Shown piece by piece: positions 1-7,231 of a stretch of DNA of 64,000 nt; position 1 is the stretch's first letter; every line of letters begins with the position of its first letter. Position numbers and translations under genes: made by a program. The notes beneath the pieces were generated by a model, which saw only the letters and a program-made list of their open reading frames with translations, was not told the origin of the DNA and made no database searches. The stretch is from an uncultured Bryobacterales bacterium (GTDB lineage Bacteria > Acidobacteriota > Terriglobia > Bryobacterales > UBA6623), in assembly GCA_964461235.1 (NCBI GenBank), contig CAYWUV010000019.1:6271-70270 (forward strand). The letters are read 5' to 3'.

Positions 1-332
1 ACGGTGCTCCGTGAGCGGAAACAACGCCGTCAGCTGCACTGCCCAGAATGGACGGCTTGACATGGAACTGTGACTCCGGTTTGTCCGTGTTTCGGCGGCC
101 GTGGGATCACCTCGATAGTGAAGATTGCCCCGCTCTCGGTTGCGGGGGGTCCGATACCCTTTGAATGCAGCAGCCATGCACGAAACGGGTCCCGAGCAGT
201 CCGAACCACGAGTACGGGAGCAGTGGAACGGAGACCGGAGAGATGGCTTGCCTCGTGACGCTGCCCGGCGGTTGTCATTGGGCTCACGAGGGTTCCTACC
301 GGGTATGGAGCAGCGTCGCCGCGTCGGCAAAA

Positions 333-361
333 TTGACAGGTCAGCCCTCTCCTGCAATACT
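333..361 (+). promoter_or_regulatory. Putative sigma70-like promoter of tRNA-Asn
   Basis: TTGACA at 333-338, a 17-nt spacer, then AATACT at 356-361. The mature tRNA 5' end lies about 21 nt downstream. Confidence 0.4.
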
Positions 362-382
362 TGATGACACAGGCCTACTTGC

Positions 383-457
<75 letters not shown>

Positions 458-1406
458 GTGCTTCCGCGTAACTCTTGGAACTAAAACGACTTATCCCAAT
501 TCAGGTGCTTTCGTTACCACTTCTTCTACCACTCGCGCGAATTTCCTCCACTAGCTGATTCCAAAGCGGCAGCTGGGCTGCAGTTGCCCAGCGACCGAAT
601 CCCCCACCATCGCGGCGGCCTTTCTCACCGTCATCGCTTCCTCTCCCATGCCTAGCAGGCTGTGGTCGAGCCGCCGCAACACCAACACACGGTTGTTGCG
701 GGGAAAATTCCTCGGCGCAAAACGTTTTGTGGGGAAGCGCAACATGTTCTTGCCTCAAGCGCAACACCCGGATCCGTGCTAAGGCATTGACCGGCAGTAG
801 GTTAGCGATCCGGGCTGTACGTCCGGCAATCAGGCGGCGCAAGGACTGCCGTGCGGGAGCGACACCCCGAAAATGGCCCTCGCATGCGCAGCCGGTCCTT
901 TCGAGGAGGTCGCTCCCAGGACTTTTCCGTGCAGGAAGACGGGGCTGCCCCGAAGGGCCGCGGAGGCGTCCACCGCAGGCATTCCGACTGTCTTGCACCG
1001 CTCTTCGGGTGCGCGGCCCAAATCGATATCCGGTGGTTAGAGGTCGTTTCCTTTGGCAGCGACTCCCGCCATCTCGCTGCAAGACTTACTCATGGGACAT
1101 CAGGACCAAATCAACGAACGCACGGTGTACCCCGTGGCCGACCAAGTCCGGCGTGTGCAAGATCCCACTTCCTACTCCCAAATCAGCGTACCCTCGGATT
1201 CACAGTCTTGAAGCTCTATGCCGAAAAGCGTTCCACTTTCCCTGTCAACTTTAGGCCCAGCATGAGTGCAGGTTACGGTGAGAAACTCATCAACCTGTAT
1301 GCTCTCCAAGTCGGATGCATCGTCAAAATGAGCGTAGACTCCCTTATTCTTCGGCGCGGCCTGGGCGGGTCAGGACGTACCGCGGAATCCAGCCCAATCC
1401 CGCATA

Positions 1407-2464
1407 TTGGGGAATGGATGTTGTAGCCAAACCTGCCCCCTCGCCCCGCAGAACCCAGCGCCGAGGTCGCCATCCCGACAAGGCCCTTCCGGCCGCCTTC
1501 GTCCGTTCCGCCCCTACAGGAAGGCGCGCGAGCAGGCTCTCGCCAACCGCATGGCGGCCCCGTCTGGCGGCGCTCCCCTCGCAGGCAAGCGCCTTGTCCA
1601 GCGAGTGCCTACCTTCGCCGAGGCCGCCCAACGCGTGCTCGAACAGAATTGCGGCAGCTGGAGCGGGCGGTGGCACCCGCAGAACTGGATCCGAAGCATG
1701 GAACGGTATGCGTTCCCGCGCATCGGCAGCTGGCCCGTGCCCGAGGTCAACACGGCCGACGTACTGGAGATCCTGACGCCGATCTGGCACGTCAAGGCGG
1801 AAACGGCCCGCGCCGTCCGCCAGCGCATCCAGTCGGTGATCGAGTAGGCGATCGCGCTCGACGTGCGGAACGGCAATCCTTGCGATCGGGTGCTGCCGGT
1901 GCTCGGTCCGCAGAACGACATCGTGACGCACCGGCGGGCACTACACCACAGGGACGTGGCCGCTGCCATCAAGACGGTGCGTGCGGGGTCCGCGCAGCCC
2001 GCGGTCAAGCTGGCGTTCGAGTTCCTCGCGCTGACCGCGACCCGCTCGGGCGAGGCACCGGGCGCACAATGGGCCGAGATCGACACGACGGACCGCGTGT
2101 GGAGCCTGTCAGCGCTGCGGATGAAGGCGAAGCGCGAGCACCGGGTCCCGCTCTGCGGCCGGGTGCTGGAGATCCTCGACGCTGCGCGGGCGCTCAGCAA
2201 CGGCAACCCGCACGTGTTCCCTATGCGGAGCGGGAGCCGATATCGGCCTCGCCGCTGCTCAAGATGCTCAACGACCTTGAGATCGCCGCTGTTCCACATG
2301 GCTTCCGCTCGTCGTTCCGGGACTAGGCGGCGGAAATGACCGATCACCCGCGGGAGGTTATCGAGGCGGCGCTGGCCCATCTGGCCCAGAACAAGGTCGA
2401 GGCTGCCGACGCGCCGTCGGACCTGTGCGAGCGGCGACGGCTGATGGACGACTGGGCTACCTAA
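1407..2464 (+). pseudogene. Tyrosine recombinase (P4/actinobacterial-type integrase) pseudogene
   Basis: ORFs 1407-1847 and 1863-2339 share one frame and encode integrase core motifs (VPTFAEAAQRVLEQ, ADVLEILTPIWHVKAETARAVRQRIQSVIE, ALTATRSGEA, RMKAKREHRVPL). The catalytic C-terminus (AVPHGFRSSFRD, then EVIEAALAH...RRRLMDDWAT) continues in the frame of ORF 1649-2326 to a TAA at 2462-2464. The gene is broken by TAG at 1845-1847 and TAG at 2324-2326, both at positions that are Trp in this family, plus a frameshift near 2232. The arm-binding N-terminus is not recognisable. Confidence 0.85.
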
Positions 2465-2592
2465 CTAGGCGGGTGCGCTGGAAGGTGATCCCGGCCACAT
2501 ATGACGAAGCGGCATGGTCGGCTCATGGCGCGCCACATGGCGTTGCCAGCCATTACGGCGGAACCGTGAGCATCGAGCTCATCAGGTATGTG

Positions 2593-3288
2593 TTACGTGG
2601 CCGATCCCGCTGGCGCTTTACTGAGGCCATGGTCTACCTCGATCAAGAAGGCGTTCGCCAACCGGAGAATCTCGGTTGTGTAGCGGATCATCTCGGTCTT
2701 GCGACGAGGACGACGGTTTCGGTTGGTCTGGGCGAAGTCGACATCCATCTCGTGCACGATTTCGTTGCGCGCGCGGAAGATTCGCTCCAGCAGCCTTAAG
2801 TCGGTCGCGAGCACGGCCGATGGGATGTCAAAATACGACGCTACTCGTAGTACTTGGTCTTTGGACTGCAGGCTCTGCGAAACCAGGTCGTCAACAAGCG
2901 CGCTTACGAGAACGTCCCTCGGGTCACGGCTTGCGAGAACAGAGGAGAGAAACCTCGGATCGAGCGTGTCTTGTCTTGCAAGCCGTTTCGAAATGAACAC
3001 CTTGAGATTCTCCTCGGCTCCCTTCGCCCGATCGATCGTGAGGGGCAGGGCGTCGCGAACAAGCTGCTTGATCATCGAGTCGAGGCCGGCGCCCGCGAAC
3101 ACCAACATCGCTCGAAGCAAGTCCTGTTCTTCATCCGTTGGAGTTCCCTGAGCCTTGCGTGATTCCCTTGCTGCCTCGAAGATGTCGAGAAAAGAGGATG
3201 CCGCGTCGTGAGCACTGCACAGGATCGTGAATCCGTTTCGCGCGGCATCCCCTGCGGGCGCGCTCGGGTAGTGCCGGAATCGACTCAC
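2593..3288 (-). CDS. HEPN-like all-alpha protein (Rx4H motif RNEIVH)
   Basis: Intact 231-aa ORF. RNEIVH at aa 174-179 (nt 2752-2769) sits in a helix-rich C-terminal half, as in HEPN RNase families (RiboL-PSP / MAE_28990 / Abi-type). The GTG start overlaps the stop of the upstream ORF (GTGA at 3285-3288). The family assignment is from motif recognition only. Confidence 0.55.
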   Translation of the reverse strand: MSRFRHYPSAPAGDAARNGFTILCSAHDAASSFLDIFEAARESRKAQGTPTDEEQDLLRAMLVFAGAGLDSMIKQLVRDALPLTIDRAKGAEENLKVFISKRLARQDTLDPRFLSSVLASRDPRDVLVSALVDDLVSQSLQSKDQVLRVASYFDIPSAVLATDLRLLERIFRARNEIVHEMDVDFAQTNRNRRPRRKTEMIRYTTEILRLANAFLIEVDHGLSKAPAGSAT

Positions 3289-3608
3289 GATCCTCGGATT
3301 TCAAGCAGGTTGACATCCTCGGCGCCTAGCGGCGGCAAATCGTAGCCGGCATATCCCGGGTAGCCGGGGTAGCCGGGGTAGCCCGGGTAGCCCGGGTAGC
3401 CGGGGTAGCCACGGTATGGGTGAGCCGCGAGACGGTACAACCGCTTCTTCTTCACGATCGTACCCAGGTAATCGCCATTCCGGTCAACGACGTCGTCGTC
3501 GTTCCAGGGAAGCCAGCCAATCCAGTTTCCGTCACTGTCGTAAACGTACTTCCCCTTCCGAAAAGCGATCCAATTGCCTCGCGAGTCGAACAGGTGCCTC
3601 ACGACCAC
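3285..3608 (-). CDS. Small beta-hairpin-repeat protein ('4-fold beta-flower'-like) with (GYP)n tail
   Basis: 107-aa ORF with repeated G-x-W/Y-I-G hairpin units (SRGNWIAF, SDGNWIGWL, RNGDYLGTI), followed by RGYPGYPGYPGYPGYPGYPGYAGY. The GTG start is uncertain. Translationally coupled to the downstream HEPN-like ORF. Confidence 0.55.
   Translation of the reverse strand: MVVRHLFDSRGNWIAFRKGKYVYDSDGNWIGWLPWNDDDVVDRNGDYLGTIVKKKRLYRLAAHPYRGYPGYPGYPGYPGYPGYPGYAGYDLPPLGAEDVNLLEIRGS
3342..3422. repeat. 9-bp tandem repeat (GTAGCCSGG)n inside the CDS
   Basis: About nine head-to-tail 9-bp units. Six are near-perfect (3360-3413). On the minus strand they encode the GYP repeats. Confidence 0.9.
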
Positions 3609-3754
3609 GCGCTCATCATATCGCGCCCGGAGTGCCGGTCAAGGCACTGGCGGTTCAGCGGTTGAACCCGTGACCTCTACCCTGCCTCCGCCGATGCCGT
3701 CGCATCAGGTCCAGCGCCACCGTAACGTCGTGGCGAGCCTCTTGTAGTCCGCGG

Positions 3755-4958
3755 TCAAGCGCAACGCCTGCCCTGGGGCCACAGCCACGCGCGCAGGAGC
3801 ATGCCGCGAATCCGTCCGATCCAAGCCGCCGCATCGGCTTCGATGGTACGCAGCGCGCTGCTCGCGACGTCTCTCAAGCTCTCGCCAAACACCTTCAGCT
3901 CGCGCGGGGCGCCGTCGTCTCGATCTCCGCCCGCTCCGTCCCGAGCTTGGAGGTCAAGTCGCCCTGGTTCGAAGTCATGCTCGTACATCGCTCCTTCAGC
4001 CGCCACGGCTTCCCGGTCTCCCGGTCGAGGGCGGTGACGTAGGCCTTGCCTTGCCGCGGCACCTCGAGGTGGGCTTCCTCCAAGGCGGCGACGACGTCGG
4101 CGCGGCTCCGCACGGCGCCGTGCTCGACGCGCTGCGTCAGGTTGTCCCGGATCAACTCCCGCGGGTCGGCTTCGTGCTCCAGACCGGTCCGCAGCTTCGC
4201 CGACTCGATGTAGGCGCGGTGGCCGGGCTGCTGCACCCTAGCCCACTCCGGGTCGTCCGGCCGGCTACAGCCGTGCTCGTGGTTGAACGTGTCGCGTAAA
4301 GGGTCGATGGTCTCTTGCCAGCCGGGCGGTGCGACGTTCAGGCTCTTGTCGTCTCCAGGTCGCACGTGCTGTCAAGACGTGCACGTGGACGCCGCCGCCC
4401 ACGAGTAGCCATCCGCGTCGAGTGCTGTCCACAACGTTTTCTCGAACTCGTCGAGGACGGCTTCGATCTGCGCGTCGGTCGGTCCTCCGGGGACCACGCG
4501 ATCACGGCCGAGCGGTACCTGTGCTCGAACGCCAGCGAGTCGGCGACGGCCGCGACCTGTTCCGGATCGCCGCGAAGCACATCGACGCCGGTGCGCGGCT
4601 GCCCGGCCGCGTCCCGCTCGCCGAGCAGGTAGTCGGAGCCTTGGCCCGCTCAATGGGCAGGTGCCCGTGCAGTTCCGCGAGCAACGGGTCCCGCTTGTGA
4701 GCGTTCCGCACGATCCACGTCAGGTGGTCTCCACGGGCCCCGTCCCACGGGGAGTAGTAGGCGCTGCATGGTTTGCACGCCGCTGTGACCCAGCGGTACG
4801 CTGCCGTCCTTGATCGACACCTTGGCGAGCAGCAACTCGACGGCGAATGTTCCCCGATCCGTGGTGTACGAAAGCCCTGTACGCCCGCCTTCTCCGCGAT
4901 CCGGGCCAGCCGCAGGCGCCAGCTGGGAATCGGGGCTTACTGAAGGACCGAGGCCCAC
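3755..4958 (-). pseudogene. HUH relaxase/mobilisation protein pseudogene (multiple frameshifts)
   Basis: A collinear relaxase-like sequence is split over at least five minus-strand frames. In order: ...FAVELLLAKVSIKDGSVPLGHSGVQT / WIVRNAHKRDPLLAELHGHLPIERAKAP / GDPEQVAAVADSLAFEHRYRSAVIAWSPEDRPT / DAQIEAVLDEFEKTLWTALDADGYSWAAA / GGGVHVHVL (HUH motif, nt 4376-4390) / KSLNVAPPGWQETIDPLRDTFNHEHG...GKAYVTALDRETGKPWRLK / AMYEHDFEPGRLD. Confidence 0.7.
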
Positions 4959-5029
4959 GTCCGTTCACCTAGTGGACTTCATTCGACCATCCGGCATAAA
5001 ATTCCGGGTACAGCCGTAGGGTCAATCGC

Positions 5030-7231
5030 GTGATCCTATTCGTAATCGTCCTCAGTCTGCTCGGAGCCCTCGAGGCACCCGGTCAAGCCCGGATCGACTT
5101 CTTCGAGAAGAAGATCCGCCCGGTGCTGGCGGAGCACTGCTATCAGTGTCACTCGGCAGAGGCCGCCCGCACGGGAATCCTGATGGGAAAGCTGCAGCTC
5201 GACACCCGAGCGGGTGTCCAGCAGGGCGGATCCCGGGGCCCCGCAATCGTGCCGGGGAAACCCGATCAGTCCATGCTGATCGAAGCTCTCAAGTACGCCA
5301 ATCGCAACCTGCAGATGCCGCCCGGCGGCAAACTGCCCGACTCGGTTATTGCTGATTTCGTCCACTGGGTGGCCCTCGGAGCACCCGACCCGAGGGAGGC
5401 GAAGGCTGTCGATACGGCGGCCATGGACCTGCAATCAGGACGTCGCCACTGGGCATTCCGTCCCCTGCGTCCTGTCGAACCGCCTCTGGTATTGGCAGCA
5501 AGTCCAGATGAGGCCGCGTGGACGGACTCGCCGATTGATCGATTCGTCCTCGCCAAGCTGCGCGAGATGCAGTTTCTCCCTTCACGGGAGGCCGGTCGGC
5601 CCAGCCTGATTCGTCGCGCCTACTTTGATCTGATCGGTCTTCCGCCGACGCCTGACGAAGTCGAGGCGTTCGTTCGAGATTCCTCTGCGGCACCGTTTCG
5701 CCGGCTTGTCGACCGGTTGCTCGCCAGCCCGCACTACGGCGAACGGTGGGGACGGCACTGGTTGGATGCGGCTCGGTTTGGAGAGAGCCTTGGAGCACAC
5801 GAGCAGGACAACGCGATTCGAGAGCACGCGTACCGATACCGCGACGCCGTGATTCACGCTTTCAATGACGACCTGGCTTACGACGAGTTTGTCCGCTACC
5901 AAGTCGCCGGTGCCCCGAAGAGTTTCTCAGCCAGTCGGCAGGACTTGGGCATGTTCGTTCAGATTGGAACCAACCTGAGCAAGACCGACAACCCGAACGA
6001 TCGCAAGTTTCACCGCCTCGACGACATGGTATCGGCGACCGGCCAAGCGTTCCTTGCCCTGACGGTTGGGTGCGCGCGTTGCCACGACCACAAGATCGAC
6101 CCGATCACTGCCGAAGAGTATTACCAGTTGACGGCTGTGTTCTTCGACGAAGCCGAGGTCAAGCCAGACGCAGGCGGCAAGTACATCCCCCTAGAAGTGA
6201 CTACGCCCCATCTTCTGGCCGGCGGCAGTTGGGAGCGGCCCGTCAAGCCGGTCGAGCCGGGGTTCCTGCGCGTCTTGATGCGGGACGGTCGCAGCTCGAA
6301 GGATTGGCAGCCCCGTCCCGAGGTCACCACTCGCCACGAGGCGCAGGCTGGATCACCGGAGCTTCGGATGCTTGCGAACTGGCTCACCGACGTCGAGCAT
6401 GGAGCCGGTGCTCTGCTGGCCCGGGTGATCGTCAATCGTCTCTGGCAACATCATTTTGGGCGCGGCATCGTTAGCACCCCGAATGATTTCGGCAAACTCG
6501 GTAGCGAGCCCACGCACCCCGCTCTGCTGGATTGGCTCGCGTCCCAGCTCATCCAGGGAGGCTGGCGATTGAAACCGATCCACCGGCTGATCATGAACAC
6601 GGCCGTGTACAAGCAGACTGCCAGCACCAATTTGGCTCAGGCGCGGCAAGATGCTCACAACGAGTACCTGTGGCACCGCAGGCCCTTACGCATGGATGCT
6701 GAAATCATTCGCGATCACATTTTGAGTGTCTCCGGCTCATTGCGCACGAACCCTTACGGACCTAGCACACCCATTGGCAACCGCAAGGAGCCTTTCAAGG
6801 ACACGCCGGACACCTGGCGCCGGTCCGTCTATCTTATGTCGCCGCGCTTCCACCTCCATCCTGTCCTCAAGATCTTCGACCCTCCGGACAACACGCAGAG
6901 CATCGGCCTTCGTGACGTCAGCACGACACCGATCAGCACGGCGTTCATGCTGAATGCGCCATTCGTGTGGGAGCAAGCGGAACGCTTCGCACAACGGGTG
7001 CGGGACAGAGTCGGTGGCGATCCCAGCCTACAAATCGAGTCGGCATACCGGATTGCTCTCTCTCGGCCACCGACCGCGTATGAACGAGAGATCGGCCTGT
7101 CTTTCCTCGGTCAACAGCGCGCGAGCGCGGCGGAGGCACTCAAGGAGCCGGGTTCCTCGGATGCCCCAAGCCCGTTGGCGCAATACTGCCATGCCGTCAT
7201 GAGCCTTAACGAATTCATCTATGTTCACTGA
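5030..7231 (+). CDS. PSCyt1 / DUF1549 (PSCyt2) / DUF1553 (PSD) family protein
   Basis: Signal peptide, then FFEKKIRPVLAEHCYQCHS (CxxCH), DRFVLAKL...LIRRAYFDLIGLPPTPDEVEAFV...[29 protein letters not shown], and a C-terminal ...MSLNEFIYVH. GTG start. Confidence 0.9.
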   Translation: MILFVIVLSLLGALEAPGQARIDFFEKKIRPVLAEHCYQCHSAEAARTGILMGKLQLDTRAGVQQGGSRGPAIVPGKPDQSMLIEALKYANRNLQMPPGGKLPDSVIADFVHWVALGAPDPREAKAVDTAAMDLQSGRRHWAFRPLRPVEPPLVLAASPDEAAWTDSPIDRFVLAKLREMQFLPSREAGRPSLIRRAYFDLIGLPPTPDEVEAFVRDSSAAPFRRLVDRLLASPHYGERWGRHWLDAARFGESLGAHEQDNAIREHAYRYRDAVIHAFNDDLAYDEFVRYQVAGAPKSFSASRQDLGMFVQIGTNLSKTDNPNDRKFHRLDDMVSATGQAFLALTVGCARCHDHKIDPITAEEYYQLTAVFFDEAEVKPDAGGKYIPLEVTTPHLLAGGSWERPVKPVEPGFLRVLMRDGRSSKDWQPRPEVTTRHEAQAGSPELRMLANWLTDVEHGAGALLARVIVNRLWQHHFGRGIVSTPNDFGKLGSEPTHPALLDWLASQLIQGGWRLKPIHRLIMNTAVYKQTASTNLAQARQDAHNEYLWHRRPLRMDAEIIRDHILSVSGSLRTNPYGPSTPIGNRKEPFKDTPDTWRRSVYLMSPRFHLHPVLKIFDPPDNTQSIGLRDVSTTPISTAFMLNAPFVWEQAERFAQRVRDRVGGDPSLQIESAYRIALSRPPTAYEREIGLSFLGQQRASAAEALKEPGSSDAPSPLAQYCHAVMSLNEFIYVH

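Follow-up and report, generated by a model that had tools for sequence, protein, structure and literature searches.

Few effectors are as common in toxin-antitoxin, abortive-infection and CRISPR-associated systems as HEPN ribonucleases (RNases). Predicted HEPN modules are numerous, and the earlier modes of HEPN control, AMPylation by MNT, RnlB and cyclic oligoadenylates, have proved informative. Here we describe a two-gene cassette in which a gene for a predicted HEPN RNase is coupled to a gene for a small protein with the 4-fold beta-flower fold, found in 64,000 nucleotides (nt) of DNA from an uncultured Bryobacterales bacterium (Acidobacteriota; GenBank assembly GCA_964461235.1, contig CAYWUV010000019.1, positions 6,271 to 70,270 of the forward strand), hereafter the window. 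Ribo L-PSP-HEPN proteins (PF18735) are positive for the Rx4H motif and distantly related to AbiD/AbiF, and are fused to endoRNase L-PSP or encoded in operons with ParB (Anantharaman et al. 2013, PMC3710099). The beta-flower fold was described in 2023 and assigned to the Tubby/scramblase clan (Durairaj et al. 2023, PMC10584680). Cernunnos, a single-gene PF21784 integron cassette of Vibrio cholerae, is reported to have anti-phage activity (Darracq et al. 2024, bioRxiv 10.1101/2024.07.02.601686) and was recovered anew in a second screen (10.64898/2026.03.17.712381). An earlier note on this DNA, made from the sequence alone, had stated that beta-flower proteins have no known function, which the reported activity of Cernunnos corrects. 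The same note knew of no characterised system pairing the two families, and this holds: neither protein matches any family of PADLOC-DB v2 at E<=10, and literature searches returned no description of a beta-flower and HEPN pairing. Two-gene HEPN conflict modules are already known; the beta-flower partner is new.

The cassette occupies about 1.06 kb of the reverse strand (2583-3646) and comprises a promoter, a gene for a 107-aa beta-flower protein with a (Gly-Tyr-Pro)7, or GYP, tail (3285-3608) and a gene for a 231-aa, all-alpha RiboL-PSP-HEPN-like protein, a predicted RNase effector (2593-3288). Both open reading frames (ORFs) are intact, as the earlier note had described, and they overlap in the tetranucleotide GTGA (3285-3288), which contains the GTG start of the HEPN gene and the TGA stop of the beta-flower gene. 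Such a 4-nt NTGA start/stop overlap is present in 13 of the 15 homologous loci examined. When window positions 1-6000 were compared by blastn with 28 loci from genomes of GTDB species, 75-86% nucleotide identity was found in 11 genomes (L001-L009, L013 and L022; L numbers designate loci). This identity was confined to about 2583-3646, the blastn matches falling within about 2563-3660, and the flanks were unrelated, with boundary alignments placing the downstream limit of the block some 15-25 nt past the HEPN stop. Over the blastn and boundary alignments together, homology with 12 other genomes stops at the edges of the block. The cassette had first been presented as a feature of an island at a tRNA-Asn gene, the setting in which it lies here; these alignments show that it is an independent unit, which elsewhere stands mostly alone between housekeeping genes and sometimes in defence islands.

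The block begins with its own putative promoter. A sigma-70-type site (3615-3642, reverse strand) consists of TTGACC, a 16-nt spacer and TATGAT, and the start codon follows 6 nt past the -10 box, a leaderless layout. It is the sole promoter-like site in 2400-3800 and matches 10 of 12 consensus positions, where shuffled sequences give 0.2 sites. The same -35 and -10 boxes and the same 6-nt spacing recur in nine further cassettes of the close clade (TTGAC[CTG], 16 nt, TATGAT). The more distant loci L010, L023 and L106 carry TATAGT or TATACT followed by 6 nt and ATG, and some other distant clades have an ordinary leader with a Shine-Dalgarno sequence instead. An Rfam scan of the cassette matched no RNA family, and there is thus no sign of an RNA antitoxin.

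The small protein matches the Pfam Bflower model (PF21784) with E=7.9e-8 and 33.1 bits against a cutoff of 25, bearing out the beta-flower resemblance proposed before any database had been consulted. PF21784 is precomputed for most of its 380 homologues. An AlphaFold2 model built on a 98-sequence alignment reached a predicted local distance difference test score (pLDDT) of 88, with eight short strands by DSSP, and the sequence holds three [DNEQ]xxG motifs (DSRG, DSDG and DRNG), which the authors of the fold describe as a semiconserved hairpin-tip motif (PMC10584680). In its above-cutoff match, its eight predicted strands and these tips the protein resembles the PF21784 beta-flowers, and all nine of the residues invariant in its family (9/9) are present. 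It departs from many of them at the C-terminus, where a conserved (GYP)7 tail replaces the hydrophobic helix that they enclose. This tail (residues 61-95) is encoded by a 9-bp tandem repeat of 7.7 copies (3342-3410, reverse strand; TRF and repeat search), is conserved at the protein level across the family, and was modelled at pLDDT 85-90 without secondary structure. A Foldseek search of the model against the PDB gave no significant match, and a sequence-profile search of the PDB returned noise, with collagen for the GYP tail. Pfam and NCBIfam searches of the small protein found no helix-turn-helix (HTH), ribbon-helix-helix (RHH) or AbrB domain, Bflower and low-complexity (collagen-like) matches being the only ones, and no NCBIfam model matched either protein of the cassette. 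As a side observation, the beta-flower/GYP domain is C-terminal in ORFs of 375 and 335 aa at two loci (L057:2341-3468 and L058:1661-2668), whose N-terminal regions hold repeated 'EEVELVAELLA.IGG.W' segments; these may be genuine fusions, or ORFs extended too far in high-GC DNA.

The 231-aa protein had been called HEPN-like for its helices and its Rx4H motif, R174-N-E-I-V-H179 (RNEIVH, 2752-2769, reverse strand). That motif is conserved across its family: R174, N175 and H179 are invariant in an alignment of 95 sequences, all 22 invariant residues (22/22) are present in the window protein, and PF18735 matches 78 of the 95 members, with a best E-value of 2.4e-10. Two other HEPN models, HEPN_MAE_28990 and HEPN_Apea, match one family member each. 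Just past the motif lies a basic loop, N189-R-N-R-R-P-R-R-K197 (2698-2724, reverse strand), in which R195 never varies and conservation is at least 90% at N189, R190, R192 and R193; this loop, modelled at a pLDDT of about 68, presumably binds RNA. The AlphaFold2 model is all-alpha, with an overall pLDDT of 93.1 and a predicted template modelling score of 0.90. A sequence-profile search of the PDB returned noise (a bromodomain) and a weak match to the HEPN domain of Csm6 (E=0.75). We collected 623 homologues, and an exhaustive HMMER search gave 913 clusters at 50% identity, of which 754 had E<=1e-10; stand-alone proteins of 220-250 aa make up almost all of them. Gene calling had yielded a shorter, 171-aa protein (P0010, window 2593-3108) that starts at the internal Met61, as do the calls for many homologues. 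Because conservation extends over the N-terminal 60 aa, the 231-aa protein is the true one and P0010 an error of gene calling; callers often choose Met61 because the true start is a GTG overlapping the upstream stop. Two longer database entries from the exhaustive search, P0282 and P0283, were considered as beta-flower-HEPN fusions of the 'Rosetta stone' kind and were rejected as mis-called ORFs that run on upstream through the GYP repeat in another frame.

The earlier note had proposed a survey of gene neighbourhoods for recurrence of the pair, and the pair does recur. Of the HEPN-seeded genome loci, 24 hold a full-length HEPN gene and upstream sequence, and in 22 of these a beta-flower gene immediately precedes it; a HEPN gene follows within 200 nt in 37 of the 59 beta-flower-seeded metagenome loci with enough downstream DNA. 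A viral contig also carries the pair, its HEPN protein being 34% identical to that of the window. The two genes are thus co-inherited, and both are under purifying selection: the ratio of nonsynonymous to synonymous substitution rates (dN/dS) between the window copy and nine close relatives is 0.11-0.23 for both genes (0.11-0.22 for the beta-flower gene), with medians of 0.17 and 0.16 for the two genes among 36 close pairs. With their many homologues and their full sets of invariant residues, this selection marks both ORFs as real genes. Hosts include Acidobacteriota, Latescibacterota, Spirochaetia, Dehalococcoidia, Actinomycetota, Gemmatimonadetes and Gammaproteobacteria and, by source name, also Nitrospira and a Hodarchaeota archaeon. 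Between genomes that belong to different orders or phyla the cassette retains 82-86% nucleotide identity, and copies about 99% identical were found in four metagenome runs.

How does this cassette compare with the described systems? With the Ribo L-PSP-HEPN family it shares the family-level profile match, the invariant Rx4H motif, a stand-alone all-alpha protein of about 225 aa and some restriction-modification or defence neighbourhoods. The founders of that family, however, are fused to L-PSP or lie in a ParB operon, whereas here neither is found and the partner is a beta-flower protein. HepT/MntA (a type VII toxin-antitoxin system) and RnlA/RnlB resemble it in having a small partner gene beside a HEPN RNase gene, in their mobility and patchy distribution and in their link to phage defence; in HepT/MntA the partner gene also comes first, as in the window. 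In those two systems the partner is an MNT nucleotidyltransferase or RnlB; that of the cassette resembles neither, lacks an enzymatic domain and accompanies a HEPN protein of another clade. Pfam and NCBIfam found no nucleotidyltransferase domain of the MNT kind, which AMPylates HEPN proteins, in either window protein. Type II toxin-antitoxin systems share the bicistronic order with the small gene first, the stop/start overlap and the dedicated promoter, as well as solitary insertion between housekeeping genes, carriage on mobile elements and a toxin that decays more often than its partner. They differ in that the upstream protein of the cassette has no recognisable RHH, HTH or AbrB domain and is also conserved as a stand-alone gene. 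A polymorphic-toxin/immunity pair was considered and rejected for want of any secretion or trafficking domain and because the small gene comes before the nuclease gene instead of trailing it.

On balance, we think that the cassette is probably a compact conflict module of two genes that moves horizontally and is of the toxin-antitoxin or abortive-infection type, with a HEPN RNase as effector and the beta-flower protein as regulator. Its sigma-70 promoter would drive a bicistronic, probably leaderless mRNA, the first cistron of which would yield the beta-flower protein with its Tyr/Pro-rich (GYP)7 tail, and the NTGA overlap would couple translation of this protein to that of the 231-aa HEPN-family protein. 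The invariant R-N-x3-H motif and the adjacent Arg-rich loop would form the RNase site of a growth-arresting effector. The beta-flower protein, as the cognate regulator, would hold this RNase inactive in normal cells and might respond to a trigger, for example phage infection. More speculatively, the Tyr-rich tail might touch the Arg-rich loop next to the active site; that homologues encoded alone also retain the tail counts against this. The anatomy of the cassette, the joint inheritance of its two genes, the purifying selection on them and their family assignments are shown; we infer RNase activity, toxicity, neutralisation through direct binding and a possible phage trigger. More broadly, and tentatively, the beta-flower/GYP protein could represent a new class of regulator or sensor for HEPN RNases, and the block a widespread, hitherto unrecognised minimal defence or addiction cassette, numbering at least 750 clusters at 50% identity and hosted by many bacterial phyla and perhaps by archaea.

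The way in which the two genes decay bears on this proposal. In a classification of loci that kept duplicates, both genes were intact at 66 loci, and at four the HEPN gene was broken while the beta-flower gene was intact: by a nonsense mutation at codon 42 in L004, which has also lost the -35 region, by a nonsense mutation at an invariant Gln in L019, by a deletion with frameshift in L009, and by a frameshift in L061. A Candidatus Thiosymbion ectosymbiont carries tandem cassettes (L021, 4034-4602 and 5667-6657), the first of which has an intact beta-flower gene and a 60-aa HEPN fragment. A further 24 loci hold a beta-flower gene without a HEPN gene. Conversely, the full-length HEPN genes that lack an upstream beta-flower gene (L025, L027 and L044) all encode distant relatives, with 35-44% identity. 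Exceptions to the pattern are L055, an N-terminal variant, and the frameshift within the GYP repeat of L052 and L053 described below. Such an asymmetry is expected if the HEPN protein is a costly effector that needs the small protein, and if the small protein is harmless alone.

Several observations weigh against the proposed module. Against HEPN_RiboL-PSP (PF18735) the window protein reaches just E=0.0022 and 18.3 bits, under the 28.4-bit cutoff, and because of this score it may constitute a sister subfamily of PF18735. A Foldseek search of the HEPN model against the PDB and BFVD gave no match at E<0.8, HEPN or other, so that the HEPN assignment rests on profile matches and the motif, not on fold. 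The HEPN claim of the earlier note therefore stands for the motif and the family, and does not extend to the score of the window protein or to a structural match. The small protein, in contrast to most type II antitoxins, has no DNA-binding domain. At two loci on metagenome contigs (L052, 100-500, and L053; Ga0315278 and Ga0315294), a frameshift lies within the 9-bp GYP repeat and the HEPN gene is intact, which is awkward if the tail neutralises the toxin; repeat slippage or an assembly error could be the cause. In the window the beta-flower gene starts with GTG (3606-3608), where the 11 related cassettes listed have ATG, and in a leaderless layout this start may lower expression of the first cistron. 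Collections of phages and plasmids held no close relatives, just distant matches on actinobacterial plasmids, and it is housekeeping genes, not defence islands, that surround most loci. Finally, close beta-flower/GYP homologues occur as single genes, in integrons of Vibrio metschnikovii, in L118 and L119 and in actinobacterial loci. Together with the protection that Cernunnos reportedly confers alone, these solo homologues indicate that the small protein is not merely an antitoxin.

This last point leads to the main alternative, namely that the beta-flower/GYP protein is an autonomous defence protein like Cernunnos, perhaps acting on membranes, and that the HEPN protein is an optional second effector or a separate defence gene carried along, not a toxin held in check by the small protein; we regard it as rather unlikely. 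The solo genes of Vibrio metschnikovii (L040:10001-10321 and L041:5597-5917; 63% identical, GYP tail kept) speak for it. They form an integron cassette between attC repeats of the Vibrio cholerae repeat (VCR) type, in a large array that also holds ParE/Phd and GNAT cassettes, so that this homologue shares with Cernunnos the form of a single-gene integron cassette. Solo genes in Vibrio integrons are 58-69% identical to paired ones, and the solo loci mentioned above, the persistence of the small gene at several loci where the HEPN gene is lost or broken, and the reported single-gene anti-phage activity of Cernunnos, which the second screen recovered too, all fit the same idea. So do two loci in which a beta-flower/GYP gene is followed by another partner: a 412-aa protein matching phrog_27609 (L054:3333-4571, E=2e-58) and a 232-aa protein matching phrog_31894 (L112:1231-1929, E=7e-27). 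On the other side, the 4-nt coupling and the almost invariable occurrence of a beta-flower gene in front of HEPN genes of the close family suggest partners that work in fixed stoichiometry, not two independent genes. Translational coupling to a HEPN gene sets the window gene apart from Cernunnos, a single gene with which it shares a Pfam domain. Cernunnos probably belongs to a different PF21784 subfamily, because none of the 120 top-ranking relatives of the solo homologue from Vibrio is a Vibrio cholerae protein. The Vibrio cassette DNA had no match in E. coli genomes. As for membrane action, the placement of the fold in the Tubby/scramblase clan (PMC10584680) would agree with it, but no signal peptide or lipobox was seen by eye, a reading made without a formal test.

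A second alternative concerns the window alone: the cassette might have survived there by chance, either as a passenger not yet hit or as an arrival after the mobility genes had died. The setting is that of a decayed integrative element. A tRNA-Asn gene (anticodon GTT; 383-457, forward strand; ARAGORN and Rfam) is the presumed integration site, and a search of the window for a direct repeat (att) of its 3' end found no second copy. A tyrosine integrase pseudogene follows (1346-2464, forward strand), with Phage_int_M and Phage_integrase domains in different frames. The two nonsense codons and the frameshift that had been reported for it were located (in-frame stops at 1845-1847 and 2324-2326, frameshift near 2225-2240), and its repaired translation matches both Pfam domains. 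Two lesions came in addition: a 133-bp deletion in the N-terminal domain, relative to a homologous element, and an Asp at what we take to be the position of the catalytic Tyr. On the other side of the cassette, the relaxase pseudogene (3700-4640, reverse strand) spreads over three frames with at least four frame changes, as described before. Its stitched three-frame translation matches the NCBIfam MbeA model NF047848 (E=1.5e-17), and a Pfam search of the remnant matched no family. The G+C fraction of the cassette, 0.593, is lower than that of the integrase (0.685) and relaxase (0.688) remnants, in agreement with the earlier note, and that of the whole window is 0.627.

Comparison with the homologous decayed element (L024:5683-7408, Vicinamibacterales, OZ220728) was informative on the history of this island. 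That element matches window positions 1346-2038, 2402-2919 and 3785-3922, and the equivalent of 2919-3785, that is the beta-flower gene, the promoter and the N-terminal half of the HEPN gene, has been swapped for about 200 unrelated bp. Its integrase lacks 365 bp, yet the N-terminal segment lost from the window copy is present, and the TAG stop of the window reads TGG. The element shares the integrase-HEPN junction, so the cassette was carried as cargo by the common ancestor of the two copies. We conclude that the module came as cargo of an integrative or mobilisable element at tRNA-Asn and stayed intact while the integrase and relaxase decayed. Within about 1.06 kb the cassette has 0 disabling lesions, and the integrase and relaxase remnants have at least four each in about 1 kb. 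Under equal decay, with about 4 disabling lesions per kb in each neighbouring pseudogene, we estimate the Poisson probability of a lesion-free 1.06 kb at about 0.02, which favours selection in the window lineage. The preservation noticed in the earlier note is thus real in the window but not general, since the cassette is half deleted in L024, showing that retention is not universal, and the HEPN gene is broken at four other loci.

We therefore consider chance survival improbable. It would be helped by the existence of the cassette as an independent unit at unrelated sites, by its half deletion in L024, and by the losses in L004 of the -35 region and of HEPN codon 42, which show that decay does happen. 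Against these stand the shared junction, which makes the cassette cargo before divergence, while the comparable integrase lesions are lineage-specific (TAG against TGG, the 133-bp deletion in the window alone), the low Poisson value, the retention of all invariant residues of both proteins (31/31), and the nearly identical copies (~99%) in the four metagenome runs.

Genomic contexts elsewhere bear on the last alternative. At two loci (L033 and L034) the pair lies within a type I restriction-modification (R-M) operon, hsdM-hsdS-AbiJ_NTD4-pair-hsdR, adjoined by NACHT, HicB and DUF4258 genes; L044 adjoins a restriction-endonuclease-like sequence and L027 a VapC-like sequence, both judged by eye. 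A few of 117 neighbouring ORFs from 21 loci match PADLOC families (type IIG R-M, DarG, PDC-S35 and PDC-S68). Where the neighbours are housekeeping genes, they include LysR regulators, seryl- and cysteinyl-tRNA synthetase, threonine synthase and ABC transporters, and the survey found no conserved neighbour gene. Solitary insertion between housekeeping genes with occasional residence in defence islands is typical of toxin-antitoxin-like modules. A role in housekeeping RNA metabolism, for example as a processing enzyme and its accessory subunit, is very improbable: it would suit the many loci between housekeeping genes and the RNA processing performed by some HEPN proteins (PMC3710099), but not the patchy, phylogeny-inconsistent distribution, the 82-86% identity across orders or phyla with unrelated flanks, the frequent pseudogenisation, the copies in an R-M operon, an integrative element and a viral contig, or the missing conserved neighbour.

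The coupled beta-flower-HEPN pair is a concrete, testable hypothesis for both proteins and, if true, would provide the first mechanistic role for the beta-flower fold. Nothing about it is mechanistically surprising as yet. The self-contained 1.06-kb cassette is easy to clone and assay, and its sharp edges at unrelated genomic sites raise the question of how such minimal modules move.

Two minor observations complete the description of the locus. Between the tRNA-Asn gene and the integrase remnant, about 0.9 kb (458-1345) contains just overlapping high-GC ORFs, none with a Pfam match. At the edges of the block, no attC-like element was seen by eye in the window or the close clade, where no formal attC search was made. 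The pentanucleotide ACTTG is present at both ends (window 2583-2600 and 3637-3646; likewise in L001-L013 and L022). At the left end, reading ..gACTTGACC, it coincides with the -35 box, and at the right end, reading ..ACATACTTG, it lies directly past the HEPN stop. With no recombinase or attC nearby, these ACTTG ends could be a crossover core, the trace of a tandem array, or chance.

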